A stretch of DNA of 64,000 nucleotides from Nitrospirota bacterium (lineage in GTDB: Bacteria > Nitrospirota > JACRHL01), in NCBI GenBank assembly GCA_016212085.1, contig JACRHL010000011.1:64161-128160 (forward strand), read 5' to 3'. Both the position numbers and the translations under genes were made by a program. The notes under the pieces were generated by a model. That model worked only from the letters and a program-made list of their open reading frames with translations. It was not told where the DNA came from and ran no database searches. Shown here one piece after another: positions 4,053 through 57,103 of the stretch. How positions within the stretch are numbered: the stretch's first letter is position 1; every line of letters starts with the position of its first letter.

Positions 4053-5576
4053 CTATTCCGATGCCTTCGTGCCCACCAGGGCGCCGGAGCGGATCTCCGC
4101 GTCGCCGCGCGCCAGGTGCTGGATCTCGCCCGCCGCCACCCGGCTCGCGTAGTCGCGGAAGTAGGCGATCAGCCCCTTCTGGATGGACTCGTGGGCGAAC
4201 CGGTCCACCGGATCGATGCCCGCCCGGGTCAGCTCGCCCTTGGGGCATTCCCCGATGCGGGAGACGAACACGGCCGTACAGTCGCCGATGGCGCGGATCA
4301 CCGTTTCCAGGGTGTCCTCCTCGCCGTGGCCGCCCTGGCAGTACATGTCGACCCGGCGGTGGCCGACGAACTTGGCGCCGTCGCGGCTGACCTCGTAGAT
4401 CTGGAACTCGCGGGCGTGGCCGAAGTGCTCGTTGATGAGCCCCTCGCCCTTGGTGGCCACGGCGGCCAAAATGGATAGGGTGCCCGCCATCTCGGTGGTC
4501 ATCGCCTGGAGGGCGGCCAGCTCGTTTTCCTGCCCGGCGAACAGGGCGGCGCGCTGGGCCTCCACCATCTGTTGGTAGGCCTGGCGCTTCTCCAGGTCGT
4601 AGTTGACCTGCATCCGCTCGATCTTCTCCAGGGTGAACTCGTCGCTGCGGTCCTCCCCCAGCAGGCCCACGGCGTCGGCGCGGCACTGGCGGCAGTGGCG
4701 CATCATGTTCATCTCCCCCTCCTCGCACTGGTCCTGCAGGGCCTTCAGCTCCCTGGCGGTGGGGCCGCGCTGGCCGGTGAGGCCGTAGTGGGTGCCGTGC
4801 TCCGGGCTGGAGATGAGGGGCATGATGTTGTGCAAAAAGGCGCCGTTGCCCTTGACCACCCGGTTCACCTCCACTAGGTGCCGGTCGTTGACGCCGGGGA
4901 TCATGACCGAGTTGACCTTCACCAGGATGCCCCGCTCCACCAGCATCCCGAGGCCCTTCTGCTGCTGCGCGGAGAGGATGGCGGCGGCCTCCTCGCCGTG
5001 GCGGCGCTTGTTGTCCCAGAAGATCCAGGGGTAGATCTGGGCGCCCACCCTCGGGTCCACGTGGTTGATGGTGATGGTCACGTGGTCCACCCTGTAGGCG
5101 GCGATGGTGTCCACGAACTCCGGCAGGCGCAGGCCGTTGGTGGACAGGCACAGCTTGATGTCCGGCGCCTCGCGCTGGATCATCGCGAAGGTCCGGAAGG
5201 TCTTTTCCGGGTTGGCCAGGGCGTCGCCGGGGCCGGCGATGCCGAGCACGGTCATCTGCGGGATCTCGCTGGCCACCGCCAGCACCTTCCTGGATGCCTG
5301 CTCCGGGGTGAGCTTCTCGCTCACCACGCCGGGGCGGCTCTCGTTGGCGCAGTCGTACTTGCGGTTGCAGTAGTGGCACTGGATGTTGCAGGCGGGGGCC
5401 ACCGCCACGTGCATGCGGGCGTAGTGGTGGTGGGCCTCCTCGCTGTAGCACGGGTGATTTTTGACCTTCTCCCAGGTGGCGGGGTCCATGTCGGCGGGGC
5501 CCTTGGACGAGCCGCAGCTTCCCGATACCTCGCAGCCGCCGCCCTGGGGGGCGGTATTCAGCATGGGCAGTTCCAT
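4053..5576 (-). CDS. nifB: FeMo-cofactor biosynthesis radical-SAM protein NifB, with a C-terminal NifX-like domain
   Basis: 507 aa. Contains the radical SAM motif [14 protein letters not shown] and the NifB-typical [29 protein letters not shown]-terminal NifX/NafY-like domain is present. An AGGAGAA RBS precedes the start. Confidence 0.92.
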
Positions 5577-5585
5577 GTGGTTCTC

Positions 5586-5906
5586 CTATTGCTTGCCGGT
5601 GAGGGTGGCGATGCTGATCACGCCGGGCACGGGGTTCTGGAACACCTTGAACAGGCGCTCGTCGTGGGCGGTGCGCTCCAGGAAGGTGGCGTAGGCGCGC
5701 GCCAGGGCGTCGCGGTAGCGCCGGTAGCGCTCGTCGGTGGCAAGGCCCCCCGGCCCCGCGTCGATCTCGTTCTTGAGCAGGGCGAATTTTTTCAGGATGT
5801 GCAGGCGGTTCACCCGCACCACCTGGGGGTCGTAATCCAGCTCGAACAGGGCGAAGAAATCCTCCGCGTCGATGGCGTGGTCCAGTTTGTCCAGCGTGGC
5901 GTTCAT
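5586..5906 (-). CDS. nifW: NifW-like nitrogenase-stabilising protein (tentative)
   Basis: 106 aa with no Cys. The motif ...FFALFELDYDPQVVRVNRLHILKKF... resembles the NifW family core. It sits between nifN and nifB where nifX is usually found. Confidence 0.55.
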   Translation of the reverse strand: MNATLDKLDHAIDAEDFFALFELDYDPQVVRVNRLHILKKFALLKNEIDAGPGGLATDERYRRYRDALARAYATFLERTAHDERLFKVFQNPVPGVISIATLTGKQ

Positions 5907-5923
5907 CGGTTCGGTCCTTTCCG

Positions 5924-7252
5924 TTAGGAGTCATCCCCCGGCACACTTCCCGGAACCGGTTCCGGGCGGTGCGCGAGCAGGAGGTTGGCGGCGTCGAAGA
6001 TGAGGCGGGTGGCGCCCCGGTACCCCACGTTGAGCTGGTGGGCGGCGCCCAGCCGGTCGAAGTTGGGAATCCCCATCCGCATGAGCGGGATATCCAGCCG
6101 TTGCGCGGCCTGGCGGCCGTGGGAGTGGGTCACCAGCAGGTCGCACCCCCGTGCGGCGGCCTCCAGGTCCTCCAGGTCGCCGACGATCACCGTGTCCGCT
6201 GGGAGGGTTTCCAGGTTGGGCGCGGTGGCGGGGGCGACCGCGCAGGCCACGGTGGCGCCCATGCCCGTGAACAGGTCGGCCAGCGCCGCCAGCAGGTCGG
6301 CCTCGGCGCCGATGGCGATCCTGCGGCCGGCAAAATGGAAGTGGCCGTCCAGCATGGCGTCCTCCAGGCGGCTGCGCTGGCGGCGGACCTTGAGGGGCAC
6401 GTCCTCCATGCTGATCTCGTGCAGGAGCGCCACCAGGCGGTCCACCTCCTCCAGGCCCGAGAGGTGGTCGAACACCGTGTACGGCACGCCGTTGCGCTGG
6501 CACAGCACGTCCGCCGCGGGCTGCATGCTGCGCCCCACGGCGATGGTGTGCTCCGCGCTTCCCATGGCGCGGATGCGGGCCAGGGGGGTACCGCCCAGGG
6601 TGGTGGGCGAGAAGGTGTCCGGCACGTGGCCGTCCAGGGAGCCGGACAGGTCGGGCAGGATGGTGGGCACCAGGCCGAACGCCTCGATCAGCTCCCGGAT
6701 CTCCTCCACGTCTGCGGGGGTGAGGGAGGCGCCCGCCAGCACGTTCACGCGGCCCGACAGGAGGGCGGATTCCCCCTCCGCCAGCTCGCGCACCAGGGCG
6801 GTCACGGCCTTGCCGAAACCGTCCTGGAGCGAGCCGGAAAAATCGGGGGTGGCCACGGGCACGATGGCCACGTGGTTCATCTCCGGGTGCTTCCCGCGGA
6901 ACAGGCGGATCACCCCCTCGATGTCCTCGCCCTTGGTTTCCGTGAGGCCCGTGGTGGCCAGGCCGATGATCCGGGGGCGGGCCTTCTCGTAAATGGTCAG
7001 CAACGCCTGCTCGATGCTTTCCTCGCCGCCCAGGATGGTGGTCACCTCGTTCATGGCGGTGGTCTGCATGGGGATGCTCTCGCGGAAGTGGCGCACGAAC
7101 AGCACCAGCCCGAACGACGTGCAGCCCTGCGAGCCGTGCAGCACCGGCAGGCACTGGTCGAGCCCCAGGAACGCCAGGGCCGCGCCGATGGGCTGGCTCA
7201 TCTTGAGCGGGTTGACGGTGCAGGCCTTGCGGGGTTTGGTGATGAGGGTCAT
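5924..7252 (-). CDS. nifN: Nitrogenase MoFe cofactor biosynthesis protein NifN
   Basis: 442 aa with the N-terminus KACTVNPLKMSQPIGAALAFLGLDQCLPVLHGSQGC typical of NifN. It immediately follows nifE. Confidence 0.9.
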   Translation of the reverse strand: MTLITKPRKACTVNPLKMSQPIGAALAFLGLDQCLPVLHGSQGCTSFGLVLFVRHFRESIPMQTTAMNEVTTILGGEESIEQALLTIYEKARPRIIGLATTGLTETKGEDIEGVIRLFRGKHPEMNHVAIVPVATPDFSGSLQDGFGKAVTALVRELAEGESALLSGRVNVLAGASLTPADVEEIRELIEAFGLVPTILPDLSGSLDGHVPDTFSPTTLGGTPLARIRAMGSAEHTIAVGRSMQPAADVLCQRNGVPYTVFDHLSGLEEVDRLVALLHEISMEDVPLKVRRQRSRLEDAMLDGHFHFAGRRIAIGAEADLLAALADLFTGMGATVACAVAPATAPNLETLPADTVIVGDLEDLEAAARGCDLLVTHSHGRQAAQRLDIPLMRMGIPNFDRLGAAHQLNVGYRGATRLIFDAANLLLAHRPEPVPGSVPGDDS

Positions 7253-7261
7253 GGCGCCCCC

Positions 7262-8665
7262 CTATGCCGTCACGGTGGGCGCCGCGGCCGGTGCCACATG
7301 CCAGGGCGCGGGCTTCCTGAGGCGCGCCCAGACGGGGTTGTGGATGGCCTTGTCGATCCGGTCCACCAGGTTCACCATGCCGTCGTACCCCGCATAGGCG
7401 TGGTGGCGCTCCTGGTTGATGTCGAGGAACGGCACCTTGGCCTTCAGGGCCACGAACTGGGAGCGGCCGCCGGCCATGAGGATGTCGGCCTTGGCCTCGG
7501 CGAGCATGGCGTACATCTCGCGCGGGGTGATGGACTCGATCATGTGGGCGTCCTGCCCCATCAGCTCGACGATGCGGTGCTTGTCCTCCTGGGTGCTCTT
7601 CTTGACGCTGGTGCCCACCACCTCCATGCCCACCTCCTGGAGGGCGGACACCACGGACCAGCTCTTCACGCCGCCGGTGATGAGCAGCACGCGCTTGCCC
7701 GCCAGGCGCTCGCGGTAGGGCAGCAGGCGCTCCCAGGCGACGGCCTCCTGCTCGGCGATCAGGGCTTCCGTGCGGTCGAGCAATGCGGCGTGGGCACCCT
7801 GGCGGACCAGCAGCCCGGCGATCTGGCGCAGGGCGTCCGACATGTCGGAGATGCCGTAGAAGGAGCCCTCGAAGAACGGGATGCCGTAGCGCTCCTCCAT
7901 CTTGCGGGCGATGTTGATCATCGCCTTGGAGCACACCATCATGCTGGCCCTGGCCCGGTGCGACCAGGCCACCTCGCGGTAGCGCGCGTCGCCGGAGATG
8001 CAGGCGAGCAGGCGGATGCCCAGCCGGTCGAGGAGCGGCGTCACCTGCCACAGCTCGCCGGAGAGGTTGTACTCGCCGATGATGTTGATGTCGTGATCGG
8101 TGAGGTAGTCCGGCTCCTGGGTGCCGATCACGTGGTCCAGCAAGGCCTCCGCCGCCAGCTTGTTGCCCAGGTTCTTGCCCCCCACGAAGCCGGGGGCGTT
8201 GACCGGGATGACCGGCTTGCCGAACTGCTCCCTGGCGGCCTTGCACACCGCCTCCACGTCGTCGCCGGTGAGGGCGGGCACGCAGGTCTGGTAGACGAAC
8301 ACGGCGGGCGGGTCGTACTTGTCGAGGATCTCCCGGATCGCCCGGAACAGGCGTTTCTCGCCCCCCATGATGACGTCCTGCTCGTCCAGGTCGGTGGTGA
8401 AGCCGGTGCGGTAGAGCAGGGGGCCGGACGATGCGGCGCCGCGGTTGTCCCACGAGTTGCCCTCGCAGGCGATGGGGCCGTGCACCAGGTGGGCGGCGTC
8501 GACGATCGGCTGGAGGGCGATCTTGGCGCCGTCGAACGCGCAGCCGCCGGCCGCCGCGCCGGGCTGGGCGGACTTGGTGCAGCCCTTCTTGCGGTCCTTG
8601 TCCGACTTGTTCCGGTTGTGCTCGCAACCCGGTTCGTCGAGGACCTCGGCGACCTTCGTGATCAT
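7262..8665 (-). CDS. nifE: Nitrogenase MoFe cofactor biosynthesis protein NifE
   Basis: 467 aa from [20 protein letters not shown]...GCAFDGA...HGPIAC, a NifE/NifD-like fold. It lies upstream of nifN. Confidence 0.9.
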
Positions 8666-8812
8666 GTGTGCCTTGCCCCAAATAAAAAAGGAGGCCGAAC
8701 GCGCACATCGATGGGTGCGCATCCGGCCTCCAGTCGTCTGGTCAGCCTGTTGTTGCGTTCCGTGGAGACCGGTGCCCCCGGCGGGTCGCGCCGTCTCCTT
8801 GCCCGGAAGCTA

Positions 8813-12059: not shown

Positions 12060-12932
12060 TCAGCACATGGCCGCGATCAGGGAGCGGAACGCGTCGCCGT
12101 TCCCCTTGATGGGGCGCTTGACCGGGGGGCCGTCCGCCAGCGCCGGTTCCCGGTCCGCGTAGCTGGGCCGCTCCACCTGGTAGAACAGGCCGGTTGGAAG
12201 GCGCTCGGACTCGCCCGCCGCCCGCATCGCGGCGGCCAGGTCGGCCGGATCGTGCCCGGCCTCCTCCAGCTTGTAGACCCGCTCGCGGAAATAGGGGTAG
12301 GTGTTCAGGTGGTTGTAGGTGACGCACGGGGAGAACACGTCCACCAGGGCGAACCCCCGGTGCCGCATGCCCCCGGCGATGAGCCCGGCCATCTGGGCGA
12401 CATCGCCGGAGAAGCCCCGCGCCACGTAGCCGCAGCCGGCGGCCAGGGCCATGGCCAGGGGGTTCAGGGGAAGCTCCGGGTTGCCCCGGGGGGTGCTCTT
12501 GGTGACGACCTCCAGCCCGGTGGTGGGGGAGGCCTGGCCGGTGGTCAGCCCATACACCTGGTTGTTCATCACCACGTAGGTGAGGTTCAGGTTGCGGCGC
12601 ATGGCGTGCAGCATATGCCCCAGGCCGATGCCGTAGCCGTCGCCGTCACCCCCGGTGATGACCACCGTCAGGTCCGTGTTGGCCAGGTGCGCGCCGGTGG
12701 CCAGGGGTACCGCCCGGCCGTGCAGGCCGTGGACGCCGTAGGCGTGGATGAAGCCCGGCAGGTTGGAGGAGCAGCCGATGCCCGAGACCACCAGCATGTC
12801 GTCGGGGCGGATGCCCAGGCTCCCGGCCGCCTGCTTGAGCGCCTTCAGGACGCCGAAGTCGCCGCACGCGGGGCACCAGTCCGGGTCCACCGGGCCGTCG
12901 TAGGTTTCGATGGGCAGTTCAAGCGTGGCCAT
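12060..12932 (-). CDS. korB: 2-oxoacid:ferredoxin oxidoreductase beta subunit (TPP-binding), KorB-like
   Basis: 290 aa with CPGCGDFGVL...GIGCSS...GGDGDGYGIG, the TPP/FeS motifs of KorB/PorB. It overlaps the korA stop. Confidence 0.85.
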   Translation of the reverse strand: MATLELPIETYDGPVDPDWCPACGDFGVLKALKQAAGSLGIRPDDMLVVSGIGCSSNLPGFIHAYGVHGLHGRAVPLATGAHLANTDLTVVITGGDGDGYGIGLGHMLHAMRRNLNLTYVVMNNQVYGLTTGQASPTTGLEVVTKSTPRGNPELPLNPLAMALAAGCGYVARGFSGDVAQMAGLIAGGMRHRGFALVDVFSPCVTYNHLNTYPYFRERVYKLEEAGHDPADLAAAMRAAGESERLPTGLFYQVERPSYADREPALADGPPVKRPIKGNGDAFRSLIAAMC

Positions 12933-14928
12933 GGGCCGCCTCCTGGGTGCGGGGGATGGGGTGATGCAGGGCCAGCACCGCCCCGGTATCGGCGCCGATC
13001 ACCAGCAGCCCCATGTCGTGCCCGTCGTCGCGGCCCTCCAGGCGCGCCTCCCAGGCGGGCTCGCCATACACATGCTCGCCCACCCGGCGCAGCGTCGCGG
13101 GCCAGGCCATGTCGCCCAGCCGGCTGCGGATGTAGTGGTACGCGCACTCACGGGCCTCGCCCTCCGAAAGGGCCAGGGGCTGGCTGCGGCCCGTCAGGAC
13201 GGCCTGCGCCCGCTCGGCGATGTAGCCGGGGGTGAACGGCTCGCCGTCGTAGCGGAGCACCAGGCCGTGCGCCCGGTGGCCGGTCTCGGCCCGCAGGTAG
13301 CGGGCAAACTGACCGGTCAGGTTGTTCTCCACCACCACGGTGCGGCGGGCGGTGTCGATGGCCTCCAGCATGGCACCGGTGGGGAACGGCAGCAGGTACT
13401 TCACCTGCATCTGGCCGGCCACCACGCCCCGCTCCGAGAGCAGGTCCACCGCCTCGCGGATGACGCCGCCGGTGGACCCCCAGCCGATGAGCAGGACCTC
13501 CGGCCGCGAGGCGCCGTAGCGCTCCGGCGGCGGGAGCTGGGCCGCCACGGCCTCCAGCTTGCGCATCCGCTTTTCGTGCATCTTGCGGCGCATGGGGGGG
13601 CTCGCGAACACGTCCGACAGCAGGATTCCCGCCTCGTCATGCTCGTCCGACGCGGCGATGTGCGCCGCCCGCGGGGTGCCGGGCAGGGCCCTGGGCGAGA
13701 CGCCCGATGGGGTCAGCCGGTAGCGCAGGTAGCCGTCCGCCTCGGCGACGTCGTCCACCCGTTCGCCCCGGTCGATGGGCATATCCCAGTCCAGGTCCGT
13801 GTGCTCCACCGTCTCGTAATGCTCCGCCAGCGCCAGGTCGGACATCACGATCACCGGCATCTGGAACCGCTCCGCCAGGTTGAATGCCTCCGCCACGGAG
13901 CCGAAGGCGTCCGCCGTGTCCACGGGGGCCAGGATCGCACGGGGATAGTCGCCCTGGGAGGCCCCGAACACCTGGTTCAGGTCGCCCTGCTCGGTCTTGG
14001 TGGGCACACCGGTGGAGGGGCCCGCGCGCTGCCCCTCCACGATCACCACCGGCGCCTCGATCATGCCGGCGAAACCCACCGCCTCGCTCATCAGGGCAAA
14101 GCCGCCGCCGGAGGTGGCGCACATGGCGCGCACCCCGGCATACCCCGCGCCGATGGCGGTGTGGATCACGGCGATCTCGTCCTCGCACTGCTTGACCACC
14201 ATGCCGAAATCCGGGCCGTGGGCCGCCAGGTAGTGGAGGATGTTGGAGACGGGGGTCATCGGGTAGGCCGCGTAGAACTTGCAGCCCGCCGCCAGGGCGC
14301 CCAGGGCCATGGCCTGGTTGCCGGTGAGGAAGGGGCGCGCCGTGCGCGAAAAGGCCCAGCCGGTGTTCAGCGCGGCGGTGTGTTGCCGGGCGTGGGCGTG
14401 ACCGGCGCGGGTGGCGTCGACGTTGTGCGCGATGACCTCCACGGGCTTGCCCGCGTAGATGTCGCCAGTCACCCCTTCCAGCACCGCCGGGTCAAGGCCC
14501 AGCAAGTGGGCGGCGGCCCCCACCAGCACACTGTTTTGCATGACCGGGGGCACCTTGCCCAGGGGCTTGAGCAACTCCTTGACCGGCATCCCCAGCAGGT
14601 TGACATCCTTGCCCGGCAGCCGCTCGGGGCAGGTGAGACGGTCGGCCGCGTACACGATCCAGCCCCCCGCTTCCACCTGGGGGGCGTGGCGTTCGAGGGT
14701 GTCCTGGTTGAGGGCGATGAGCAGGTTCAGGTGGTCGCCGTGGGAGCGCACCTTGTCCTCGCCCATGCGCAGGGTGAGCCAGATGTGCCCCCCCCGGATC
14801 ACCGACTGGTAGCTGTTGTAGGCGTAGGCGTGAAGCCCCAGACGGGTGCCCGTCCGCGCGAGGATGTCGCCGCAGCGGGCGAGCCCGTCTCCCGCCGCAC
14901 CGCCGATTCCGATGCTGAGTGCGCCCAT
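12919..14928 (-). CDS. korA: 2-oxoacid (2-oxoglutarate):ferredoxin oxidoreductase alpha subunit, KorA-like
   Basis: 669 aa from MGALSIGIGGAAGDG. The chosen start is the ATG 5 nt after a GGAGG RBS; the upstream GTG abuts the RBS. A gamma-like N-terminal domain is fused to the alpha domain (YPMTPVSNILHYLA). Confidence 0.85.
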   Translation of the reverse strand: MGALSIGIGGAAGDGLARCGDILARTGTRLGLHAYAYNSYQSVIRGGHIWLTLRMGEDKVRSHGDHLNLLIALNQDTLERHAPQVEAGGWIVYAADRLTCPERLPGKDVNLLGMPVKELLKPLGKVPPVMQNSVLVGAAAHLLGLDPAVLEGVTGDIYAGKPVEVIAHNVDATRAGHAHARQHTAALNTGWAFSRTARPFLTGNQAMALGALAAGCKFYAAYPMTPVSNILHYLAAHGPDFGMVVKQCEDEIAVIHTAIGAGYAGVRAMCATSGGGFALMSEAVGFAGMIEAPVVIVEGQRAGPSTGVPTKTEQGDLNQVFGASQGDYPRAILAPVDTADAFGSVAEAFNLAERFQMPVIVMSDLALAEHYETVEHTDLDWDMPIDRGERVDDVAEADGYLRYRLTPSGVSPRALPGTPRAAHIAASDEHDEAGILLSDVFASPPMRRKMHEKRMRKLEAVAAQLPPPERYGASRPEVLLIGWGSTGGVIREAVDLLSERGVVAGQMQVKYLLPFPTGAMLEAIDTARRTVVVENNLTGQFARYLRAETGHRAHGLVLRYDGEPFTPGYIAERAQAVLTGRSQPLALSEGEARECAYHYIRSRLGDMAWPATLRRVGEHVYGEPAWEARLEGRDDGHDMGLLVIGADTGAVLALHHPIPRTQEAAHGHA

Positions 14929-15153
14929 CGTCACCTCCGTGTCGAAAGCGTGGGCATGTATTACTGGGGCACACTTCGAACGTACACCCGTGGCGGCCGC
15001 TGCGCCAGCCGGTAATGCCCTGATTTAATTCGATGTGGCGGTTGCGCAGCGCCCTGTTTGGCGCCACTGTTAAGCAAGGCCCCAAGCGGATGAATCCCCT
15101 GGGCGAGTGGGGATGGGGTTGTTTTCCCACTCCCCAACGCGTGGAGAGACACC

Positions 15154-20963: not shown

Positions 20964-21257
20964 CTCGCGGACGGCAACCACCTTCTGCAATGGGGATCGG
21001 ATCGGTTTCGAGATAGTACCTCCAGGGGTGATCGACGCCGCGAAATTATACCCGATTCCACGACGCAACCAGTACCCCGCCGTGCGGAACCCGGGACACG
21101 CGGGCCGCCGGCGGCGGAACGGCGCCGGAGCGGCATGCCGTCGGGTGGTGGCGGGCGCCGGGAATGGCGGGGGACCCCGGCGGTTCCTTGACTTTTTCCG
21201 CCGGTTATCCGATAAGAGGCGGTCAGGGGTCAGACAATCGCAGCAGGGAACCCTCCT

Positions 21258-22796
21258 ATGCCTTTCTTGCGCCCGTCCGCCGCCCTGTCCCTCATCGCAG
21301 CTTGCCTGCTGCTGTTCATTGGCGGCACCTCCCACGCCCACACATTGCACGTCACCGACGACGCGTCGTCGGATCGGTCGGCGCATTCAAGACTGTCCGG
21401 CGACGGTGGCGACATGGTGTTGCGCGCCGCCGCCGTGCCTGATCGCGACGGGGAGGACCGCGACCGCCGTGGCCGGGACCATGGGGACGATGACGACCAC
21501 GACACCGCTGGCGCCGCGTTGGCGCTGGCCCGCTTTGACCTGTCGACGCTGGCCGCCGGCGCCGATATCGAGAAGGCCACGCTGCGCCTGTGGGTAACCC
21601 GGGTTGCCCACCCCGGCACCGTGCACGTGCGGCTGATGCTGGACGGGTGGTCGGAACGCGACCGCTACCTGCGGGCGGAAATGGACCCGGTGCCGGTGCG
21701 GTCGTTCGCCGTTTACGCGGATGACGGCGGGCGCACCCTGACCGTCGATATCACCGACGCCGTGCGTCTCTGGCGCGCGGGCGTCCTTCCCAACCACGGC
21801 CTGGCGCTGACCACGGATGATGCCAGCCTGTGGCTGGCCAGCAAGGAAAACACCGCCACCTCCCACGCCGCCGAGGTGGAGGTGGCGCTGGCGCCAACGC
21901 GGGCACTGGCGGATTCCGGCGGCTCACCCGGCTCCACCGGGCCGCAAGGCCCCACCGGTCCGCAAGGCCCGGCGGGCGTGCCGGGTGACCCCGGCCCCGC
22001 CGGCCCGCAAGGCCCCACCGGTCCGCAAGGCCTGGCGGGCGCGCCGGGTGACCCCGGTCCCGCCGGCCCGCAAGGCCTCACCGGTCCGCAAGGCCTGGCG
22101 GGCGCGCCGGGTGACCCCGGCACCGCCGGTCCGCAAGGTCCCGCCGGTCCGCAAGGCTTGGCGGGCGTGCAGGGCGACCCCGGCCCCGCCGGCCCGCAAG
22201 GCCCCGCCGGTCCGCAAGGCCTCACCGGTCCGCAAGGCCCGGCGGGCGCGCCGGGGGCGACAGGCCCGGTTGGGCCACAGGGGCTCACGGGGCCGCAGGG
22301 CCCTCCCGGCCCCGGCGGGTTGTCCGGCGTGGTGATCGGCCCGCACCTGGTCAGCGTCACGACGCCGGACGCGGTCACCCTGGACGTTGCCGGGATGCCG
22401 GGCGTGGCGTTCGGGGCCGCCTACCTGGCGAGCCCGTACATCCTCACCACCACGTGGCGCGACCCGCTCACCCTGGCCATGGACGTGCCGGCGGACGGGG
22501 TGATTCTGATCCAGTACACCCTGACCTGCGAGCTGGTGTCGGCGGGCGCGCCGGCCGCGCTGGCGAGCGGGTTTGTCAGCAACCTGCCGGTGCAGCTCAT
22601 CCCATCGGCGGACCCGGGCACGTTCCATTGCACCACCGGACCGTCGCCGCAGACGGACGTCATGCGCCAGAAGCTGTTCCCGGTGCAGAAGGGGGTGAAC
22701 AACTTCTACCTGCGCGCCGCCATGCAGACACCCACCGGCCTGGGCATGTTGCGCAACATCACCATGTCGGGCATGTATTTCCCGGCCACCTACTGA
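21258..22796 (+). CDS. Secreted collagen-like protein: signal peptide, an N-terminal beta-rich domain that may be DNRLRE/CBM96-like, about 45 Gly-X-Y triplets, and a C-terminal globular domain
   Basis: 512 aa. [29 protein letters not shown] looks like a signal peptide. [16 protein letters not shown] resembles a DNRLRE-like pattern. A long uninterrupted [19 protein letters not shown]... run follows. The roughly 150-aa C-terminal domain ends ...YFPATY. Confidence 0.75.
21918..22330 (+). repeat. Tandem 63-bp (21-codon) repeats encoding the collagen-like region (about 4.5 near-identical units, with 9-bp sub-periodicity)
   Basis: The unit ggccccaccggtccgcaaggcc(c/t)ggcgggcg(t/c)gccgggtgaccccgg(c/t)cccgccggcccgcaa recurs with only a few substitutions. 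Confidence 0.8.
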
Positions 22797-22816
22797 CCGG
22801 GCCGGGCTACCCCGCA

Positions 22817-22850
22817 AGGGGCCGGGTGGCAACGCCCGGCCCTTTTTTTG
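22817..22850 (+). terminator. Rho-independent terminator after the collagen-like gene
   Basis: GGGGCCGGG-tggcaacg-CCCGGCCC followed by TTTTTTT. Confidence 0.75.
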
Positions 22851-22957
22851 GTGCCCCCGGACGGCGACCCTGGGCGGCCGCGCCCGACCTGATCGCGCCG
22901 GAGCGGGGCGGCCGACCGTTTGGGTCCACGCCCCCAAAGCCGTTACAATCGGCCCCC

Positions 22958-24109
22958 ATGCTCACCGTCCTCCACCGTGTCCCCGTTTGGCTGCCGCAGA
23001 CCGAGACCTGGAACCACACCCAGATCTCGAACCTGCCGCCGGAGCGCGTTTCCTGCCACGTGGTGTGTGACACCACCGCCAACCTCGACCAGTTCCCCAT
23101 CGCCAACCTGCACTGCCTGACGGACGACTCCGCCGCCGCCCGCCTGCTGCGCCGGGTCGCCCGCAAGACGCCGCTCTACCCCTGGCTGCGCAACCGCTAT
23201 GGCGCGGCGGTGGCGCGGGCGGCGGGGGCGCGGGTGCTGCATTCCCACTTCGGCTTCTACGGCTGGCAGGACCTGCCCCTGGCCCGGGCGGCGGGCCTGG
23301 GGCACGTGGTCACCTTCTACGGGGTGGACGTGAACAAGTTCCCGCGCCAGTACCCCGTGTGGCGCCGGCGCTACCGGGAGCTGTTCGCCCGCGTGGACCG
23401 GGTGCTGTGCGAGGGGCGCCACATGGCGGACGCCCTGGTGGCCCTGGGCTGCCCGGCAGGCAAGGCGCGCGTGCAGCACCTGGGGGTGCGGCTGGACCGG
23501 GTTCCCTATGCGCCGCTGGCGTGGCGGCCCGGCGAGCCGCTCAAGGTGCTGATCGCCGCCTCGTTCACGGAAAAGAAGGGCATCCCCCACGCCATCCGCG
23601 CCCTGGGCCGCATCCGCAACGACGTGCCGCTGGCGGTCACCCTCATCGGCGACGCCGCCGACAACCCGGACAGCCGCGCCGAAAAGCGGATCATCCTGCG
23701 CGCCATCGCCGAGGCGGGGATCGCGCCGCGCCTGCTCGGCTTCCAGCCGCACCGGGTGATGCTGGAGGAGGGGCGCCGCCACCACGTCTTCCTGTCCCCC
23801 AGCATCGAGGCGAAAAGCGGCGACACGGAGGGGGGCGCGCCCGTGTCCCTCATCGAGATGGCCGCCACCGGCATGATGATCGTGAGCACCCGCCACTGCG
23901 ACATACCGGACGTGGTGCGGGACGGGGAGACCGGCCTCCTGGCGGACGAGGGCGACGTGGACGGGCTGACGGCCCACCTGCGCGCCCTGATCGCCCACCC
24001 GGAGCGGTGGGAGGCCATGCGCCGCGCCGGCCGCGCCCACATGGAGGCGGACTACGACGCCGCCGTGCAGGGGGAGCGCCTTGCCGCCATCTATGCGGAG
24101 CTGGCGTAG
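22958..24109 (+). CDS. Glycosyltransferase family 4 (GT-B, RfaG-like)
   Basis: 383 aa from MLTVLHRVPVW with the C-terminal GT4 motif ...EGGAPVSLIEMAATGMMIVSTRHCDIPDVV..GETG. Confidence 0.75.
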   Translation: MLTVLHRVPVWLPQTETWNHTQISNLPPERVSCHVVCDTTANLDQFPIANLHCLTDDSAAARLLRRVARKTPLYPWLRNRYGAAVARAAGARVLHSHFGFYGWQDLPLARAAGLGHVVTFYGVDVNKFPRQYPVWRRRYRELFARVDRVLCEGRHMADALVALGCPAGKARVQHLGVRLDRVPYAPLAWRPGEPLKVLIAASFTEKKGIPHAIRALGRIRNDVPLAVTLIGDAADNPDSRAEKRIILRAIAEAGIAPRLLGFQPHRVMLEEGRRHHVFLSPSIEAKSGDTEGGAPVSLIEMAATGMMIVSTRHCDIPDVVRDGETGLLADEGDVDGLTAHLRALIAHPERWEAMRRAGRAHMEADYDAAVQGERLAAIYAELA

Positions 24110-24959
24110 GGTGCGGCTCGTGTCCGTCGTCATCCCCGTGTTCAACAACCGGGCGACCCTGGGGCCGGTGCTGGCCGCCCTGAACGCCCAGGACTATCCG
24201 CGCCTCGAGGTGATCGTGGCGGACAACAACTCCACCGACGGCTCGCCGGACGTGGCCATCGCCCACGGCGCCACGGTGGTGTTCGAGCGCGAGACCCAGG
24301 GCAGCTACGCCGCCCGCAACAAGGGCATCGCCGCCGCCAAGGGGGATATCCTGGCGTTCCTGGATGGCGACTGCCGGCCGCGCCCGGACTGGCTGTCCAA
24401 CGCCGTGGCCGCCATGCGGCGCGCCGGGGCCGACCTGGCGGGCGGACGCATCGACATCGAGGCCGGGGCGGGGGGCTCCGGGCTGCTGGCCGCCTACGAG
24501 CGGCTGAGCTACGTGCGCCAGGAGGAGACCATCCGCGACCACGGCACCTCCGCCGGCGGCAACCTGCTCATCGCCAGGCGGGTGATCGACGCCATCGGGC
24601 CGTTCCGGGCGGAACTGCGCTCCGGGGGCGACGGCGAGATCTGCGTGCGCGCGCGCCGCGCCGGTTTCGCCATCGTCTACGCGGGGGACGCGGTGGTGAG
24701 CCACACCGCGGTGAACAGCGTGCGCACCCTGCTCAAGCGCTACCACCGCCTGGGCAAGGGCGAGGCGGAGCTGGCCGCCTTCGGCGTGGCGCCCATCCGC
24801 GCCGGCGGCAGCTCGTATCTGAGCCGCAAGCGCGCCTACCTGCGGCGGGTGTGGGCGGAGCGGGCCCTGTCGCCGCCTGGCCGCCTGGCCATCGTCGCCC
24901 TCAACCTGGCCGCCAGCGTGGCCCAGTGGCTGGGGCGGCGCGCCGGACGCCATGCCTGA
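24093..24959 (+). CDS. Glycosyltransferase family 2. Start uncertain: ATG 24093, GTG 24111 or TTG 24081.
   Basis: [10 protein letters not shown]...ADNNSTDGS...FLDGDC are GT2 DXD-region motifs. Confidence 0.7.
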
Positions 24960-25767
24960 ACTGCCCGAGGTGGAGACCACCCGGCGCGGCCTTTGCCCGC
25001 TGCTGGTGGGGCGCCTGGTGACCGGCGTGACCGTGCGCGAGCCGCGCCTGCGCTGGCCGGTGCCGGACGACCTGGGCACGGTGCTGACCGGCCAGGCGCT
25101 ACGGGGCATCGGGCGGCGCGCCAAGTACCTGCTGTTCCAGATGGACGCGGGCACCCTCATCGCCCACCTGGGCATGTCGGGCAGCCTGTGCGTGGTGGAC
25201 GCGGGCACCCCGCCGGGGCCCCATGACCACGTGGACATCGCCATCGAGGGCGGCACCCTGCTGCGCCTCAGGGACCCGCGCCGCTTCGGCTCCCTGCACT
25301 GGACGGCGGACGACCCGGCCGGACACCCACTGCTCAGGGAGCTGGGGCCGGAGCCCCTGGGTGATGCCTTCGACGGCCGCTACCTGTTCCGCCGTTCGCG
25401 GGGGCGGCGGGTGGCGGTGAAGGCGTTCCTGATGGATAGCCACATCGTGGTGGGGGTGGGCAACATCTACGCCGCCGAGGCCCTGTTCGCCGCGGGCATC
25501 CACCCGGCCCGCGCCGCCGGGCGGGTGGGCCGGGAGCGCTACGAGCGGCTGGCGCAGGCGGTGCGGAGCGTGCTCGCCGCCGCCATCCAGGCGGGGGGCA
25601 CCACCCTGCGCGACTTCAAGGGGGGCGACGGCCGCCCCGGCTACTTTCAGCAGACCCTGTCCGTGTATGGCCGCGCCGGGAAGCCGTGCCCGCGTTGCGG
25701 CACGGCCATCGAACTCACCCGCCAGGGGCAGCGCGCCACCTGCCACTGCCCCGCCTGCCAGCGCTAA
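24952..25767 (+). CDS. mutM: Formamidopyrimidine-DNA glycosylase (Fpg/MutM)
   Basis: 271 aa, [14 protein letters not shown]..., with a C-terminal zinc finger [25 protein letters not shown]. Confidence 0.9.
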
Positions 25768-27578
25768 CGCCCCGTGGCGAGGCGGGCGTAGGCAGCTTCC
25801 AGGAACGGGGTCACGGCGCCGTTCTCGCGGGCCCGGTCCATCAGGGCGTGCGCCTGTGGTGAGCGGCCCAGGGCAACGTAAAGGCTCATCAGGTTGACGT
25901 AGGTCTGGGGGGCGCGCGGGTCGTACTCCAGGGCGGTTTCCATCTCTGCCGTGGCGCCCGCCAGGTTGCCGCCCCTGGCCATCAGGATCGCCAGGTTGAC
26001 CCGCGCGTCCACGAACGACGGCACCAGCTCCAGCGCCCGCCGGTAGGCGCGCATGGCGGTACCGGGGTTGCCCTCCCGCTCCAGCAGGATGCCCATGTTG
26101 AAGTGGCTGTGGGCGTAGGGCTCGTACAGTTGCAGGGCGCGGATGAGGGTGGCCTTCGCCTCCGCGTGGCGCCCCATCTGGGTGAGGGCGCCGCCCAGGT
26201 CCGCATACACCGCCGCCTCCCCGTCGTAGATGGCCAGGGCGGCCCGGTATTCGGCCACGGCGGCCGGATAGTTTCCGCTCGCGTGCAGGGCGGTGCCCAG
26301 ATTGGCGTGGGCGCGGAAGTTGCCCGGCGCCTTGGCCACCGCGTCGGACCACAGGGCGAGGCCGCTGCCCCACACCGGGCCCCGTGCCACGGTGCCCGCC
26401 CCCAGCAGCGCCACCAGCGGCAGCGTCAGCCAGGCCCAGCGGCGGCGCCAGCCGAACCGGCGCGCCGCCGCCTGCGCCAGCGCCGCCAGCGCCAACAGCA
26501 CGCCGGCCACGGCCGCGTAGCCCCGGCTTTCCTGCAACGGGGTGTTCATGGGCAGGATGGTGGTGGGCAGCAGCACCAGCACGAACAGGCCCAGCCCCAT
26601 GCCGAACAGGGGCACCCGGTGCCGCAGCACCCACGCCAGCACGGCAAGTGCCACCAGGCACAGGGCCGCCCCGATGGACGCCGCCGAAGCGCCGGACGGC
26701 CCGCCAAAGTCGTGCACGATGGACAGCCCCGTGGGCAGCACCGACAGGCGCAGGTATTCCACCAGCACCCGCGCCTGCAACCACAGGTTCTCGCCAATCC
26801 CGCGCGGCCCGGCGCCGCCGGCCAGCACCTTCTGGAAGTAGCGGTGGAAGCCCATGGCGAACAGGAACATCAATCCCGCCGCCATCAGCCCCAGGTCCAG
26901 CCCGAAGCCCCGCACCCCCCAGCGCCGCGGCCGGGGGGGCGGGTAGAGCAGGTCGTACAGCAGGCACATGAGCGGCACGGTGACCGCCACCTCCTTGCTC
27001 AGCACCGCCGCCACCGTGAGCAGGGCGCACAGGGCCAGCCACAGCGGCCAGGCGCCTTCGGCGCGGCGCGAGCGGGCGAAGGCGTACACGGCGGCCAGGC
27101 TCAGCACGCCGCTCTGCAACGACGAGCGGGCGGTGATGTAGTTTACCGCCTCCGATTGCAGCGGATGGGCCAGGAACACCAGGGCGGCCCCCGCCGCCCA
27201 CGGCCACGCCAGCCCCAGCAGGTTCCCCAGGGCGGCCACCAGCAGCGCCCCCGCCCCGTGCAGCAGCAGGTTGTGGACGTGGAAGCCCGCCGTGCCCTCG
27301 CCGGTGACCGCGAAATCGAGGGCATAGCTGGTGAGCAGCAGCGGCCGGTAATGGACCGCCTGCGGCTCGGACGGGGCGAAGTAGGCCTTGCCCTCCGGGT
27401 AGGCGAAGAATCGGGGGATGTTGGCCGGATCGCGCAGGGTGTGGTTCTCGGCGATGCCGTGCCGGTCGTCGAAGTGGAACGGGTTGTTCAGGGCGCCGCC
27501 GTACAGGGCCAGCGCCAGCCCCAGCAGGAGGGCGGTCAGCGCCAGCCAGCGGCGCGCCGGGGTGGAGATGGCCGTCAT
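25764..27578 (-). CDS. Integral-membrane TPR-repeat protein (N-terminal multi-TM domain, possibly a GT-C/PMT-like glycosyltransferase, plus C-terminal TPR repeats)
   Basis: 604 aa from [28 protein letters not shown] with about 10 predicted TM segments. TPR repeats follow ([24 protein letters not shown]...). Its stop overlaps the mutM stop convergently. Confidence 0.65.
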
Positions 27579-47213: not shown

Positions 47214-47828
47214 ATGCCGCGTTACGACCCCGTTTCCCTTTGGCTGGCCCGTTTCCGCCAGCGGCGCAAGTATGACCGGTGGCTGCGCGATGGCAAGCCG
47301 TACCCGACGGCCCACCTTGCCAAGCAAGGGGTGATTCGCGATTTTGCCCGGCGCCATGGGTCCAGGGTGTTCATCGAGACCGGAACCCACATGGGCACCA
47401 TGGTCGAGGCCGTGAAGCGCGATTTCGACGCGGTGTATTCGATCGAGTTGGCCGACCCCCTGTACGCCGACGCGGTGCGCCGCTTCCGGAAAGACCCCCA
47501 CGTCCACATCCTGCACGGCGACAGCGGCAAGGTGCTGCCCGAACTCATCCGGGGGTTGACCCGGCCGGCCCTGTTCTGGCTGGACGGACACTATTCCGGC
47601 GGGGTCACCGCGTGCGGTGACAAGGAAACCCCCATCTCCGAGGAGCTGAACGCGGTGCTGGCCCACCCGGTTCCCGGGCACGTCATTCTCATCGACGATG
47701 CCCGGTGCTTCACGGGCGCGGCCGACTATCCGGAACTGGAGGCCCTGCGCCGCTCGGTGCTGGAGGCCCGCCCGGACCACCGGTTCGAGGTTGCGGACGA
47801 CATCATTCGCATCCACAAGCCCGTGTGA
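47214..47828 (+). CDS. Class I SAM-dependent methyltransferase (TylF/MycF-like O-methyltransferase fold)
   Basis: 204 aa with a [11 protein letters not shown]. Carries ...FIETGTHMGTMV... and ..LFWLDGHYSGG...ILIDDAR. Confidence 0.65.
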   Translation: MPRYDPVSLWLARFRQRRKYDRWLRDGKPYPTAHLAKQGVIRDFARRHGSRVFIETGTHMGTMVEAVKRDFDAVYSIELADPLYADAVRRFRKDPHVHILHGDSGKVLPELIRGLTRPALFWLDGHYSGGVTACGDKETPISEELNAVLAHPVPGHVILIDDARCFTGAADYPELEALRRSVLEARPDHRFEVADDIIRIHKPV

Positions 47829-47862
47829 GGGGCTGGTGCGATTGCGCTTCGTGGGAGGTGTC

Positions 47863-49023
47863 ATGAGCGGTCTTGCCGGGCGCCAGGCGCGGGTTGTGTG
47901 CCGGGTGATGATGCTTGGGGCCTTCCTGGCGACGTCCGGCTGTGGCGGAAAGAGCGGTGGCAACGCCGCCACCCCGCCGCCGGAGAACCACGTTTCCGTG
48001 GAGGTGATCACCGCCCGGCCGGCCCCCTTCACCGAGCATTACCAGATACCCGCCGTGGCGGAGCCGGTGCAGGCCTTCCACCTGGGGGTGGAGGTGGGGG
48101 GCACCCTGGCGGAGCTGGCGGTGGACGTGGGCGACCGGGTGAAGGCGGGGGACGTGCTGGCGCGCCTGGACGGCGAGCCCCTGGCCCTGGCGCGGGACTC
48201 GGCCCGGGCGGCCCTGGAGCGCGCCCAGGTGCGGGTGGCGCTGGCGCGGAAGGCTTACGCCCGGCAGCGCTCCCTGCGCGCGGAGGGCTCGGTGGCCGAG
48301 TCGGCTCTGGAGGATGCGGAGCTGGCCGTGCGCCTGGCGCTGGCGGACCGGCGCCTGGCCGGGATCGCCCTGGCGGAGGCGGAGCGCAACCTGCGCCTGG
48401 CCACCGTGGCCGCCCCGGCGGACGCGGAGGTGACGGCGCGCTTCGCCGAGCTGGGGGCGGTGCTGGCCCCCGGCGCGCCGCTGTTCAACCTGGCCCGCAC
48501 GGACCGGATCCGCCTGGTGGCGGGCCTGTCCGAGGCGGAGGTGGTGCACGTGGCCGAGGGAGCGGGGGCCAAGGTGCGTTTCGACGCCCTGCCGGAGCAG
48601 GTATTTGGTGGCAGTGTGGTGCGCGTGGGCTCCGTGGATGGGGCGGGCGGCGCCACCTTCCCGGTGGAGATCCGGGTGGACAATCCCGACGGCCGCATCC
48701 GCCCCGGCATGGTGGCCCGGATCTCCCTGCCGGGGCGCAAGGTGGCGAACGCCGTCCCGGTGCCGGCGGTGGCCCTGCGCCGCGACGGCGACACGGTGGT
48801 GGTGTTCACCGCCGTCGAGGGCGCGGCCCGGCCGCTGCCGGTGCGGGTGGCGGCGCTGGTGGACGAGACCGCCTGGATCGACCGGGGGCTGGCCGCCGGC
48901 ACCCCGGTGGTGGTGGTCGGCCAGAGCACCCTGAAGGGGGGCGACAAGGTGGCCGTGACCCGGATCGACGGCCGGGAGGCGGGCGCCGACCGCCAGGCCC
49001 CGGCGGTGTACGGCCTGCCGTAG
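47863..49023 (+). CDS. Efflux RND transporter periplasmic adaptor (membrane fusion protein) lipoprotein
   Basis: 386 aa with a lipobox LATSGC and HlyD-like coiled-coil and beta-barrel regions. A GGGAGG RBS precedes the start. Confidence 0.8.
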   Translation: MSGLAGRQARVVCRVMMLGAFLATSGCGGKSGGNAATPPPENHVSVEVITARPAPFTEHYQIPAVAEPVQAFHLGVEVGGTLAELAVDVGDRVKAGDVLARLDGEPLALARDSARAALERAQVRVALARKAYARQRSLRAEGSVAESALEDAELAVRLALADRRLAGIALAEAERNLRLATVAAPADAEVTARFAELGAVLAPGAPLFNLARTDRIRLVAGLSEAEVVHVAEGAGAKVRFDALPEQVFGGSVVRVGSVDGAGGATFPVEIRVDNPDGRIRPGMVARISLPGRKVANAVPVPAVALRRDGDTVVVFTAVEGAARPLPVRVAALVDETAWIDRGLAAGTPVVVVGQSTLKGGDKVAVTRIDGREAGADRQAPAVYGLP

Positions 49024-49120
49024 TGTCCCGTTCCGCAGATCACGTTGCGCGCGCGGCCCTGGCGGCCCCTGGCGGCGCTCCCTGCCACGGCCCCTGCCCG
49101 GCTCCCGGCGCCCCAAGGCC

Positions 49121-52100: not shown

Positions 52101-52252
52101 TGTTCGCCACCGTGCTCACCCTGGTGATGGTGCCGTGCGTCATGGGCATGCTGGACGACATCGGCAAAAAACTGGGCCTGAAAATCGGTCCGGCCGCCGA
52201 GGGCGAGACCCTGGAGCAGGAGTTGGCCCGTGCCGGGTATGACGCCCGTTAA
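49121..52252 (+). CDS. Efflux RND transporter permease (AcrB/CzcA superfamily)
   Basis: 1043 aa with the 12-TM RND architecture and two large periplasmic loops. Confidence 0.9.
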   Translation: MKSVLFSVRNPVFVNLLMLLTVVAGAYFYTTMTREVFPEIPLDIVAVSTTYTGISPDQIEKEITIPIEDAVHAITGVDEVNSRSLEGVSMIELALEQDADMAKVAQDVRGEIERLVDLPADADDPQVVEIESQFPVINVTVHGNVPEESLRVVAKALKDAIEAIRGVAAVTMTGYRDQEVSVTLDPRRLVALGVGAAEVADAVAARNVDLPAGVIRGDKSEFLVRTAGEYEDPTRLADVVVRARPDGRHVHLRDVGEVTVAYKEEEAFGKIDGERAISLEVSKKRKGDTIAIVSEINGLVEEARRGAPEGLTLTTTRDGSVWIESRLETLYANGAVGFVLVCLTLFALLDWRMAFWAAVGIPTSFLMAFVFMHMAGMSINMLSLFALIVVLGLIVDDAIIITENVYRYLLKGYTPRMAAVVGAAEVMMPVLAATTTTMAAFLPMMLMTGIMGKFMKVIPIVVVFCLIATMIESLVMLPSHLAEFGKGLTAGVRREGHLFLKLRRRYVHLIFTVLRHRYLTVALLVLAAVLSVVVMRYHMQFVMFNTKDLPGFAVLVETPEGTSLKETERVLAQVERVGAGLPDTDLNAMVSLVGSHFDISTGRSTNGSNLGMIYFELAHFDDPLRRNGYEVLNDFRARLTGITGYESLRVIETQGGPPVGRAVEVKVRGDDVAVLRRIAGEVEAYLGTVAGVYDIANDDVLGKQELAVRVDEDRAALYGLNAGAIARVVRIAFEGVEVSEVRRGNDTLDVIVRYQERYAERPQEVRQLRVLSPSAGWVPLTSVAEVRLEQGPAAVVRKDRKRTILVSSAVDKATVTSTQANALVKARFADVPARYPGYELVYGGENEQQLESLASLARASALAVLLIYLILGTLFRSFIQPVVIMSTVPFAFIGVVVGHLVMMQPLGLLSLIGLAGLVGVVVNDSLVLVAFVNDSRRRGASRWLSVARAARHRLRPILLTSITTILGLLPLSFQTRGQAAYLAPMAISIVWGLLFATVLTLVMVPCVMGMLDDIGKKLGLKIGPAAEGETLEQELARAGYDAR

Positions 52253-52258
52253 AAGCGG

Positions 52259-52287
52259 TTGACCAGGGGTTTCCACCCATTTAAAAT
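52259..52287 (+). promoter_or_regulatory. sigma70-type promoter for ccsA-ccsB(-icd)
   Basis: TTGACC-N17-TAAAAT lies about 120 nt upstream of the ccsA GTG. An AAGGAGAG RBS sits at the start. Confidence 0.5.
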
Positions 52288-52406
52288 TGTGGGTCCAAGG
52301 AATTTCGGTGCACCACTGCGCGTGCCGTCGGAGACGTGCGAACCGGCGCGCTGGGCGGACGGGCGGGGTGCGGACAACACCGCTGCATCTGGGTAAGGAG
52401 AGAAGT

Positions 52407-53714: not shown

Positions 53715-53766
53715 CCCGGCAACGATTTCAACGACTGCTAGATATAGCGGACCGGAAGGAGAGCAA

Positions 53767-54796: not shown

Positions 54797-57103
<2,307 letters not shown>

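Follow-up and report, generated by a model that had tools for sequence, protein, structure and literature searches.

A collagen-like protein with a DNRLRE-type N-terminal domain and a predicted TNF/C1q-like head in a Nitrospirota-labelled genome, and its modular relatives

The window analysed here, a 64,000-nucleotide stretch of contig JACRHL010000011.1 (assembly GCA_016212085.1, positions 64,161 to 128,160) from a metagenome-assembled genome (MAG) labelled Nitrospirota, carries a gene for a collagen-like protein, in which a signal peptide is followed by a DNRLRE/CBM96-type domain, a Gly-X-Y region encoded for the most part by a 63-bp tandem array, and a C-terminal head predicted to fold as a TNF/C1q-like jelly roll. 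We consider it rather probable that the product is exported through Sec and assembles as a homotrimeric fibre, with the DNRLRE domains as its base and the TNF-like head as its distal tip. Work on collagen-like proteins of bacteria has centred almost exclusively on pathogens (Scl, BclA, Lcl, Bucl) and on biomaterial scaffolds, and the putative fibre described here, in which a DNRLRE/CBM96-type domain occurs together with a TNF-like head that is a sequence orphan, is a new variant among them. The single gene is a modest and fairly ordinary addition to the known class of bacterial collagen-like fibres; of more interest is the family-level pattern, in which the same N-terminal module precedes collagen runs and differing heads in many environmental bacteria.

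RESULTS

The collagen-like region is encoded in large part by an in-frame 63-bp repeat array

The initial annotation had assigned positions 21258..22796 to a single open reading frame (ORF) with about 45 uninterrupted Gly-X-Y triplets, and both the coordinates and the number of triplets (45 by count) were reproduced (Table 1). As a coding signal, a GC content at third codon positions (GC3) of 0.86 was determined for the frame, the host genome having 70-74% GC, and three full-length homologues, P0007, P0008 and P0009, possess the same whole architecture. Two ORFs on the opposite strand over the repeat, 21713-22378 (-) and 21924-22937 (-), of 221 and 337 amino acids (aa), were rejected as genes and regarded as by-products of the GC-rich repeat; their translations are Pro/Gly/Cys- or Arg/Ala-rich low complexity.

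The Gly-X-Y region, for which a six-frame scan starting at GSP counts 46 triplets, is the sole collagen-like run in the window, and each domain flanking it is likewise present in one copy only. Pfam Collagen PF01391 matched it at 71.6 bits (E 4.5e-20), well above the cutoff of 27.2. Pro occupies 25 of the 45 X positions and Gln, Ala, Pro or Thr most of the Y positions, 14 triplets are GPQ, and Lys and Arg are absent throughout. If triple-helical, the region would form a rod of about 39 nm, at the textbook value of 0.286 nm per residue.

At the DNA level, Tandem Repeats Finder returned a period of 63 bp with 4.7 copies, 90% matches and zero indels (score 480), one unit corresponding to 21 aa, i.e. 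7 triplets or about 6 nm of helix. The period, copy number and frame proposed by the initial annotation were thereby reproduced, whereas its term 'near-perfect' applies only to units 2 and 3, which differ at 2 of 63 positions (97% identity). In register, units 1-4 are 84-97% identical, the other full-unit comparisons yielding 84-92%, so that differences span 2-10 of the 63 positions and include both synonymous and nonsynonymous ones; the fifth unit is partial and diverged (73-81% identical), and the longest exact direct repeat measures 42 bp, at 22016 and 22079. The array had also been taken to make up the triple-helix region as a whole, which is true for about 70% (some two thirds) of the collagen-coding DNA but not for the remaining ~110 bp outside it.

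A putatively exported protein with a DNRLRE-superfamily domain at its N-terminus

The predicted secretion of the protein agreed with the sequence, which appears to start with a cleavable-type signal peptide: aa 6-24 form the sole strongly hydrophobic segment, the cleavage context is conserved, and the (H/L)TLHV mature N-terminus is kept immediately after the hydrophobic leader in nine family members. A lipoprotein is unlikely because the Cys at aa 16 is not conserved, and lipoprotein anchoring was rejected on that ground, as were LPXTG and PEP-CTERM anchoring, whose motifs are missing, and anchoring through an outer-membrane barrel, the head fold being of the soluble type.

That the N-terminal domain may be DNRLRE/CBM96-like was supported by sequence and by fold. 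NCBIfam DNRLRE_dom (NF033679) was found at aa 84-203 with 49.8 bits against a cutoff of 34, while Pfam CBM96 (PF24517) reached 18.3 bits, below its gathering cutoff of 26. A nine-sequence family profile compared with the PDB retrieved 8wab (E 2.6e-8), deposited as 'DNRLRE domain-containing protein' under a title that names a chondroitin-sulfate-binding carbohydrate-binding module (CBM), and 7vbo (E 1.3e-6), the founding CBM96, which binds alginate (PMC9971899). The AlphaFold model of the domain, with a predicted local distance difference test score (pLDDT) of 82 and a predicted template modelling score (pTM) of 0.74, gave the same two entries in Foldseek, 8wab at E 4.5e-7 (template modelling (TM) score 0.70-0.72 by target length) and 7vbo at E 3.6e-5. 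Pro-BMP9 and TGF-beta prodomains were retrieved as well, in line with the already reported relationship between these prodomains and the CBM96 fold (PMC9971899). Membership of the DNRLRE superfamily is thus established, and functional equivalence to CBM96 is not.

The Asp/His/Arg-rich insert within the domain is longer in P0007 and P0008, the two closest full-length homologues, and missing from six others; it occupies no position of the family profile, and the columns flanking it pair with the Lys-rich N-terminal segment of 7vbo. The 7vbo lysines in this aligned segment may be the ligand residues named in PMC9971899. The loop could be a metal- or cation-binding element.

The C-terminal head is a sequence orphan with a predicted TNF/C1q-like fold

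The C-terminal domain comprises about 153-159 aa and has few relatives by sequence. Pfam yielded no match up to E 10 for the head of any of five family members, C1q PF00386 and TNF PF00229 included, the PDB contained no match to it by sequence, and an NCBIfam scan of the whole protein placed nothing over it. An exhaustive HMMER scan of 1.84 billion representative proteins identified only four true homologues, P0006 (a 135-aa fragment, 56% identical), P0007 (518 aa, 44%), P0008 (612 aa, 38%) and P0009 (382 aa, 30%). Word-indexed protein searches with the head or the head alignment came back empty, which reflects the index, as HMMER later found these four and P0007-P0009 are in the collection; the head was likewise without a match in a scan of genome contigs (one genome per GTDB species). 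Two Cys residues, C424 and C458, are invariant and may form a disulfide, and the C-terminus is conserved as ...SG(M/I/T)(Y/F)(F/Y/I)Pxx-Y.

The initial annotation had asked whether this domain is C1q/TNF-like, and structure prediction favoured the idea. The AlphaFold model, built from a five-sequence alignment (pLDDT 75, pTM 0.71), displays eight strands after 28 disordered residues, and gave 46 Foldseek matches in the PDB at E <= 0.001. The best non-capsid matches were TNF/C1q-like trimers, whose TM scores lie at 0.55-0.61 when normalised by query length and reach 0.73 when normalised by target length. These best matches comprise ExsFA/BxpB (E 3e-5), 4-1BB ligand, the N-terminal TNF-like lectin domain of BC2L-C from Burkholderia (target-length TM 0.67-0.73), Chlamydia Pgp3, C1QL2/3, the Photorhabdus TNF-like lectin PLTL, the fibre tip Bd2734 of Bdellovibrio (8okw, E 8.6e-4) and phage receptor-binding heads; viral capsid jelly rolls were retrieved as well. 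Among predicted viral structures (BFVD), the best matches include giant-virus collagen-like proteins with a C1q domain and phage tail-fibre proteins. The head is predicted, from this model, to represent a sequence-orphan family with a TNF/C1q-like jelly-roll fold, which supports, at the level of fold, the idea of a stalk with a trimeric head. To our knowledge, this fold is homotrimeric in every characterised relative, and in C1q-type collagens and BclA the head nucleates the triple helix. A comparable head-nucleation logic has been discussed for Legionella Lcl (PMC11162425).

The viral matches raise the question whether the gene is a prophage remnant that encodes a tail fibre or receptor-binding protein of phage origin. 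Phage fibres often contain collagen-like motifs and TNF-like tips, the head model resembles phage receptor-binding proteins and tail-fibre tips, and a Phage Tail Collar domain forms the C-terminus of one family member. The protein carries a signal peptide and lies among housekeeping genes, however, and neither terminal domain had a match in PHROGs or a relative in 2.9 million viral contigs, so we hold such an origin to be very improbable.

Equally far-fetched, in our estimate, is an eight-stranded outer-membrane beta-barrel at the position of the head, which would make the protein an autotransporter-like adhesin with a collagen stalk. The eight predicted strands would suit it, and the conserved C-terminus, with its aromatic last residue and alternating hydrophobic positions, follows a pattern that recalls the beta-signal of outer-membrane proteins; the xSGhhhP ending, on the other hand, presumably recalls the last strand of C1q domains. 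No outer-membrane barrel occurred among the listed Foldseek matches, the closest of which are soluble TNF/C1q-like jelly rolls; the invariant Cys pair hints at a disulfide of the kind usual in secreted jelly rolls, a triple helix could not pass an eight-strand barrel, and clearly soluble heads (C1q, tail collar) occupy the same position in other family members.

A second strain is represented by contig L066 (ERR12080971), which aligns to window 22339-26137 with 96.4% identity and has the same gene order, head-GT4-GT2-mutM. Comparison of L066:1-458 with window 22339-22796, i.e. the head, revealed 15 nonsynonymous and 5 synonymous substitutions, a ratio of nonsynonymous to synonymous rates (dN/dS) of 1.06, as against 0.09-0.40 in four neighbouring genes of the same strain pair (Fisher p = 0.024 versus the head), which fits an exposed, fast-evolving tip.

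A constant DNRLRE-collagen module with exchanged heads in environmental bacteria

A word-indexed search with the N-terminal domain yielded five relatives, three of which have collagen runs and differing C-terminal ends; that of P0004 is a Pfam C1q domain. Scanning the genome contigs with a four-sequence DNRLRE alignment then revealed 59 loci (L004-L062), from Acidobacteriota, Burkholderiales (Roseateles, Paucibacter, Aquabacterium, Ideonella), Verrucomicrobia-labelled MAGs, Methylomirabilota and others. In 48 of them the same ORF carries a Gly-X-Y run of at least 9 triplets, and in 45 the run begins 15-22 residues after a conserved SKE motif (the linker in the window protein is about 25 residues). 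The regions after the collagen, by contrast with this constant module, fell into at least 20 groups by BLAST. Among ten head types compared with Pfam, only a Phage Tail Collar domain (L060) and DUF1554 (L019) were recognised, and profile-profile comparison of the window head with 11 other head groups gave probabilities of at most 1%, so that a common origin of the family heads is unsupported at the sequence level. Modularity is a property of the whole family, and the literature yielded neither a description of this group nor a paper linking DNRLRE domains with collagen-like regions.

Tentatively, and with slightly less than even confidence, we propose that the window gene belongs to a class of collagen-stalk fibres, modular and 'tip-swapping', that is widespread among environmental diderms. 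A fixed DNRLRE-collagen part would serve as universal base and spacer, dozens of unrelated heads, many of them orphans by sequence like the TNF-like one, would set the ligand specificity, and the length of the stalk would be tuned by repeat turnover. By analogy, such a group would parallel collectins and C1q, the mosaic adhesive trimer (MAT) fibres of Bdellovibrio and phage tail fibres.

Stalk length varies between species

Collagen length ranges from 9 to 69 triplets across the family loci, with 18-69 in the head group of the window, and 17-47 and 9-32 in two other groups; thus stalk length varies between species. Locus L055 has 178 triplets in 7 runs, with 390-bp repeats. Close homologues have each amplified a unit of their own, which measures 63 bp in the window and 36 bp in both L002 (5.1 copies) and L003 (2.9-3.2 copies). 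Since the repeats of most family members are more degenerate (66-83% matches), the window array is among the youngest.

Within the species, the array may be unstable at present, as a variable number tandem repeat (VNTR). Independent Logan short-read assemblies of three runs match the window at 100% identity but stop at 22045 and resume at 22091. The first point lies 30 bases inside the first 42-bp copy and the second point 30 bases short of the end of the second copy, as expected from a k=31 graph if that k value is assumed; these contigs confirm the flanks and the repeat and carry no copy-number information. A second assembled copy of the 63-bp array was not obtained from the collections searched, and JGI metagenome contigs contained no relatives by the head alignment, nor any with the N- and C-terminal domains joined without collagen. 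L066 starts exactly at the end of the collagen region, which may be a repeat-related or coverage-related assembly break and is uninformative on copy number.

It is quite possible, if a little short of an even chance, that the array is instead an old and now stable duplication, with a stalk length fixed within the species, an explanation that competes with the VNTR sub-claim only. The extent of divergence between units and the limit of 42 bp on exact repeats speak for it, as does the mixture of synonymous and nonsynonymous differences, which implies that the copies had time to diverge; moreover, three samples of one study share the same breakpoints at both 42-bp repeat flanks, and the repeats of most relatives have decayed further still. 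Yet the identity between units 2 and 3 suffices for RecA-mediated unequal exchange, and homologues differ widely in triplet number, each having amplified another unit. A BclA array of similar design is polymorphic between strains. So is that of Lcl (PMC6460258).

Gene setting and other features of the window

The gene lies between a divergent GNAT-M20 pair and GT4-GT2-mutM, its neighbours encoding a fumarase-type lyase, an M20 peptidase, a GNAT protein, glycosyltransferases, MutM and BamA. A strong rho-independent terminator had been noted behind it and was verified, starting 20 nt 3' of the stop codon with a 60-nt fold of -37.8 kcal/mol (z = -2.25). In the ~290-bp divergent intergenic region 5' of the gene, a weak terminator-like hairpin with a T-run was observed at 21168-21190 (+), and a consensus scan upstream of the gene detected no sigma-70-like promoter.

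An envelope-biogenesis stretch follows directly downstream (22958-47116), in the order GT4, GT2, mutM, a TPR protein, a second GT2, bamA, skp, lpxD, fabZ, lpxB, msbA and waaA, and then more glycosyltransferase genes and one for an ELM1-like protein; the interval 47698-52252 behind it encodes an RND efflux pump. The host is a diderm because bamA, skp, lpxD, fabZ, lpxB, msbA and waaA occur in the same window, in agreement with the Gram-negative genome assumed by the initial annotation. That the adjacent glycosyltransferases are dedicated collagen glycosylases was considered and dropped, since they are kept only in the 96%-identical strain and adjoin the lipopolysaccharide/outer-membrane cluster; tblastn of GNAT, M20, GT4, GT2 and MutM against 61 family loci gave no match.

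Elsewhere in the window, the interval 4053-8722 (-) encodes two proteins of the nitrogenase component-1 type, one nifN-like and one nifE-like, together with a radical-SAM/FeMo-cofactor protein that is nifB-like, and from these genes the host may be diazotrophic. A gene set of the reverse tricarboxylic acid (TCA) cycle type occupies 12060-14934 (-) and 52287-60505 (+), comprising a 2-oxoacid:ferredoxin oxidoreductase, ATP-citrate-lyase/citryl-CoA-synthetase-like subunits, monomeric isocitrate dehydrogenase, aconitase and a short citrate-synthase-C-domain protein (citryl-CoA-lyase-like), which would suit the Nitrospirota label of the MAG. An Rfam scan of the window returned zero RNA elements.

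The proteins encoded around the collagen gene are identical to NCBI MBI5136996 to MBI5137007 from the Nitrospirota-labelled MAG. In a collection of 15 billion proteins these neighbours are all present, and neither the exact 512-aa product nor its M53-start variant is. The single unused accession, MBI5136998, falls at the place of the collagen gene, and our guess is that it denotes the same gene.

Table 1. Coordinates of the collagen-like protein gene, its parts and the terminator behind it (window positions)
Feature	Residues	Position	Strand	Details or basis
Collagen-like protein gene	512 aa	21258..22796	+	ATG start, stop included; ORF listing
Putative Sec-type signal peptide	aa 1-27	21258..21338	+	Predicted cleavage after TSHA, before conserved HTLHVTDD
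DNRLRE/CBM96-type beta-sandwich	aa 28-213	21339..21896	+	NCBIfam NF033679; profile and AlphaFold/Foldseek matches
Asp/His/Arg-rich low-confidence loop in DNRLRE domain	aa 58-86	21429..21515	+	pLDDT 52-58
Short linker between DNRLRE domain and collagen region	aa 214-224
Collagen-like region, 45 uninterrupted Gly-X-Y triplets	aa 225-359	21930..22334	+	Pfam PF01391
63-bp in-frame tandem array, four full units and a partial fifth		21927..22222	+	Tandem Repeats Finder
C-terminal head, predicted low-confidence neck and eight-strand beta-sandwich	aa 354-381 (neck), aa 382-512 (sandwich)	22317..22793	+	AlphaFold
Intrinsic terminator		22816..22852	+	Stem 22816-22845, 13 pairs (9 G-C), GCAA loop, then T7

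DISCUSSION

Proposed assembly of the fibre and its alternatives

In the assembly that we favour, the signal peptide would route the chain through Sec, and the C-terminal jelly rolls, if they behave as their fold suggests, would trimerise and put three chains in register, whereupon the 135-residue Pro/Gln-rich Gly-X-Y region could zip up to a rigid rod, as judged from its composition and from precedent. The three DNRLRE domains would gather at the opposite, N-terminal end of the rod and hold the fibre on the envelope of the producer or on matrix polysaccharide, leaving the TNF-like head as a distal, specificity-determining tip that would act as a lectin or adhesin. This polarity is proposed because the DNRLRE-collagen module is constant and the heads are swapped across the family, the same logic as in the Bdellovibrio MAT fibres (PMC10769870). 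Gain or loss of repeat units would alter the reach of the fibre in steps of about 6 nm over evolutionary time.

Several points weigh against this assembly. Trimerisation is argued from fold analogy only, and the head model behind it is of moderate confidence (pLDDT 75, five sequences, Foldseek TM ~0.55-0.6 by query length), while the dN/dS contrast of the head is drawn from no more than 20 substitutions. Acidic residues outnumber basic ones in the N-terminal domain, with 34 Asp and Glu versus 22 Lys and Arg; because of this, and because the acidic insert adjoins the segment aligned to the Lys-rich part of CBM96, polysaccharide binding of the known CBM96 kind is not assured. The window yielded no outer-membrane export route, anchor motif or secretion-system gene, so the product may be periplasmic or shed from the cell, and the gene neighbourhood, conserved in none of the family loci, gives no functional support.

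Release leads to a different role, in which the trimer would be a soluble or matrix-embedded bivalent cross-linker, a 'bacterial collectin' that bridges polysaccharides or cells in a biofilm via both ends. Both terminal domains belong to fold classes that bind glycans, neither LPXTG, PEP-CTERM, a second hydrophobic segment nor a conserved lipobox occurs in the protein, and Legionella Lcl is found in culture supernatants too and promotes biofilm (PMC11162425, PMC3460888). A strictly constant N-terminal module with freely swapped heads rather recalls anchored fibres that dock on a fixed partner (PMC10769870). This argument leaves room for a cross-linking role, to which we assign a minor share of the probability and which we regard as unlikely; the surface-held fibre is preferred.

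Together, the window locus and the 59 related loci suggest that uncultured diderms of soil and groundwater repeatedly use one design, in which a domain of glycan-binding type is joined by a collagen rod to an exchangeable head. If this reading is true, protein engineering would gain a new set of heads that trimerise by themselves and of collagen sequences free of hydroxyproline, the TNF/C1q-like fold would gain a new sequence family, and there would be candidate adhesins or lectins shaping aggregation, biofilm structure or cell-cell recognition in environmental communities.

Comparison with known systems

The window N-terminal domain shares with CBM96 (7vbo, 8wab) the TGF-beta-prodomain-like beta-sandwich. 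Known CBM96 modules are appended to polysaccharide lyases and have a basic Lys/Arg groove for acidic polysaccharide (PMC9971899), whereas the window domain is fused to collagen, is net acidic, contains an Asp/His-rich insert and scores below the Pfam CBM96 cutoff.

Collagen-like proteins were already known in Gram-negative bacteria, namely Legionella Lcl (PMC11162425) and Burkholderia Bucl (PMC4565658). Bucl and the streptococcal Scl1 and Scl2 resemble the window protein as collagen-like surface proteins with tandem-repeat-encoded Gly-X-Y (PMC4565658, PMC7682875, PMC8968730); unlike it, Scl has its variable head at the N-terminus and is anchored through LPXTG, and Bucl8 is part of an efflux system in the outer membrane. 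The likeness to BclA and Scl drawn in the initial annotation is valid as a functional analogy only, for the NCBIfam models gave 70 bits against a cutoff of 400 for SclA, 86 against 325 for SclB and 81 against 500 for Lcl, each over the collagen region only, and the window protein has no LPXTG motif.

BclA and C1q-type proteins share with it a collagen-like stalk followed by a C-terminal domain of TNF/C1q-like fold, which in these known proteins is a trimer that seeds and stabilises the helix, and a repeat number that sets the stalk length (PMC8968730); C1QL2/3 and giant-virus collagen-C1q proteins are, in addition, matched by the window head model. The window head nevertheless lacks a Pfam C1q or TNF sequence match. 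Compared with BclA, moreover, the gene comes from a diderm, the window showed no spore genes, an exosporium-targeting N-terminus is missing, and Pro/Gln-rich triplets take the place of GPT. In the PDB the head is matched best by ExsFA/BxpB, the anchor of BclA, rather than by BclA.

The stalks of the Bdellovibrio MAT fibres (Bd2734, Bd2439) are not known to be collagenous and consist of coiled coil and beta-helix. These are Gram-negative surface fibres in which an invariant N-terminal domain, proposed to sit on the cell, is combined with swapped C-terminal tips, and the tips include TNF-like lectin domains resembling 2WQ4 and 4QPY (PMC10769870), PDB entries also matched by the window head. Beta-helical domains are described for MAT (PMC10769870); the N-terminal domain is unrelated, and no sequence similarity to the window protein was found.

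Lcl (lpg2644) of Legionella pneumophila is likewise a Sec-dependent protein of a Gram-negative host, type II secreted (PMC11162425), and forms a trimeric 'lollipop' with a collagen-like stalk from in-frame tandem repeats of strain-variable number (PMC11162425, PMC6460258). Its N-terminus, however, is a 30-residue amphipathic helix instead of a DNRLRE domain, its head is DUF1566 and not TNF-like, and its repeats are charged units of 15 aa (45 bp). The trimeric C-terminal head of Lcl binds glycans and its N-terminal element holds it on the cell surface (PMC11162425, PMC6460258), which provides a precedent for a type II-secreted collagen-like trimer that re-attaches to the surface of a Gram-negative cell (PMC11162425).

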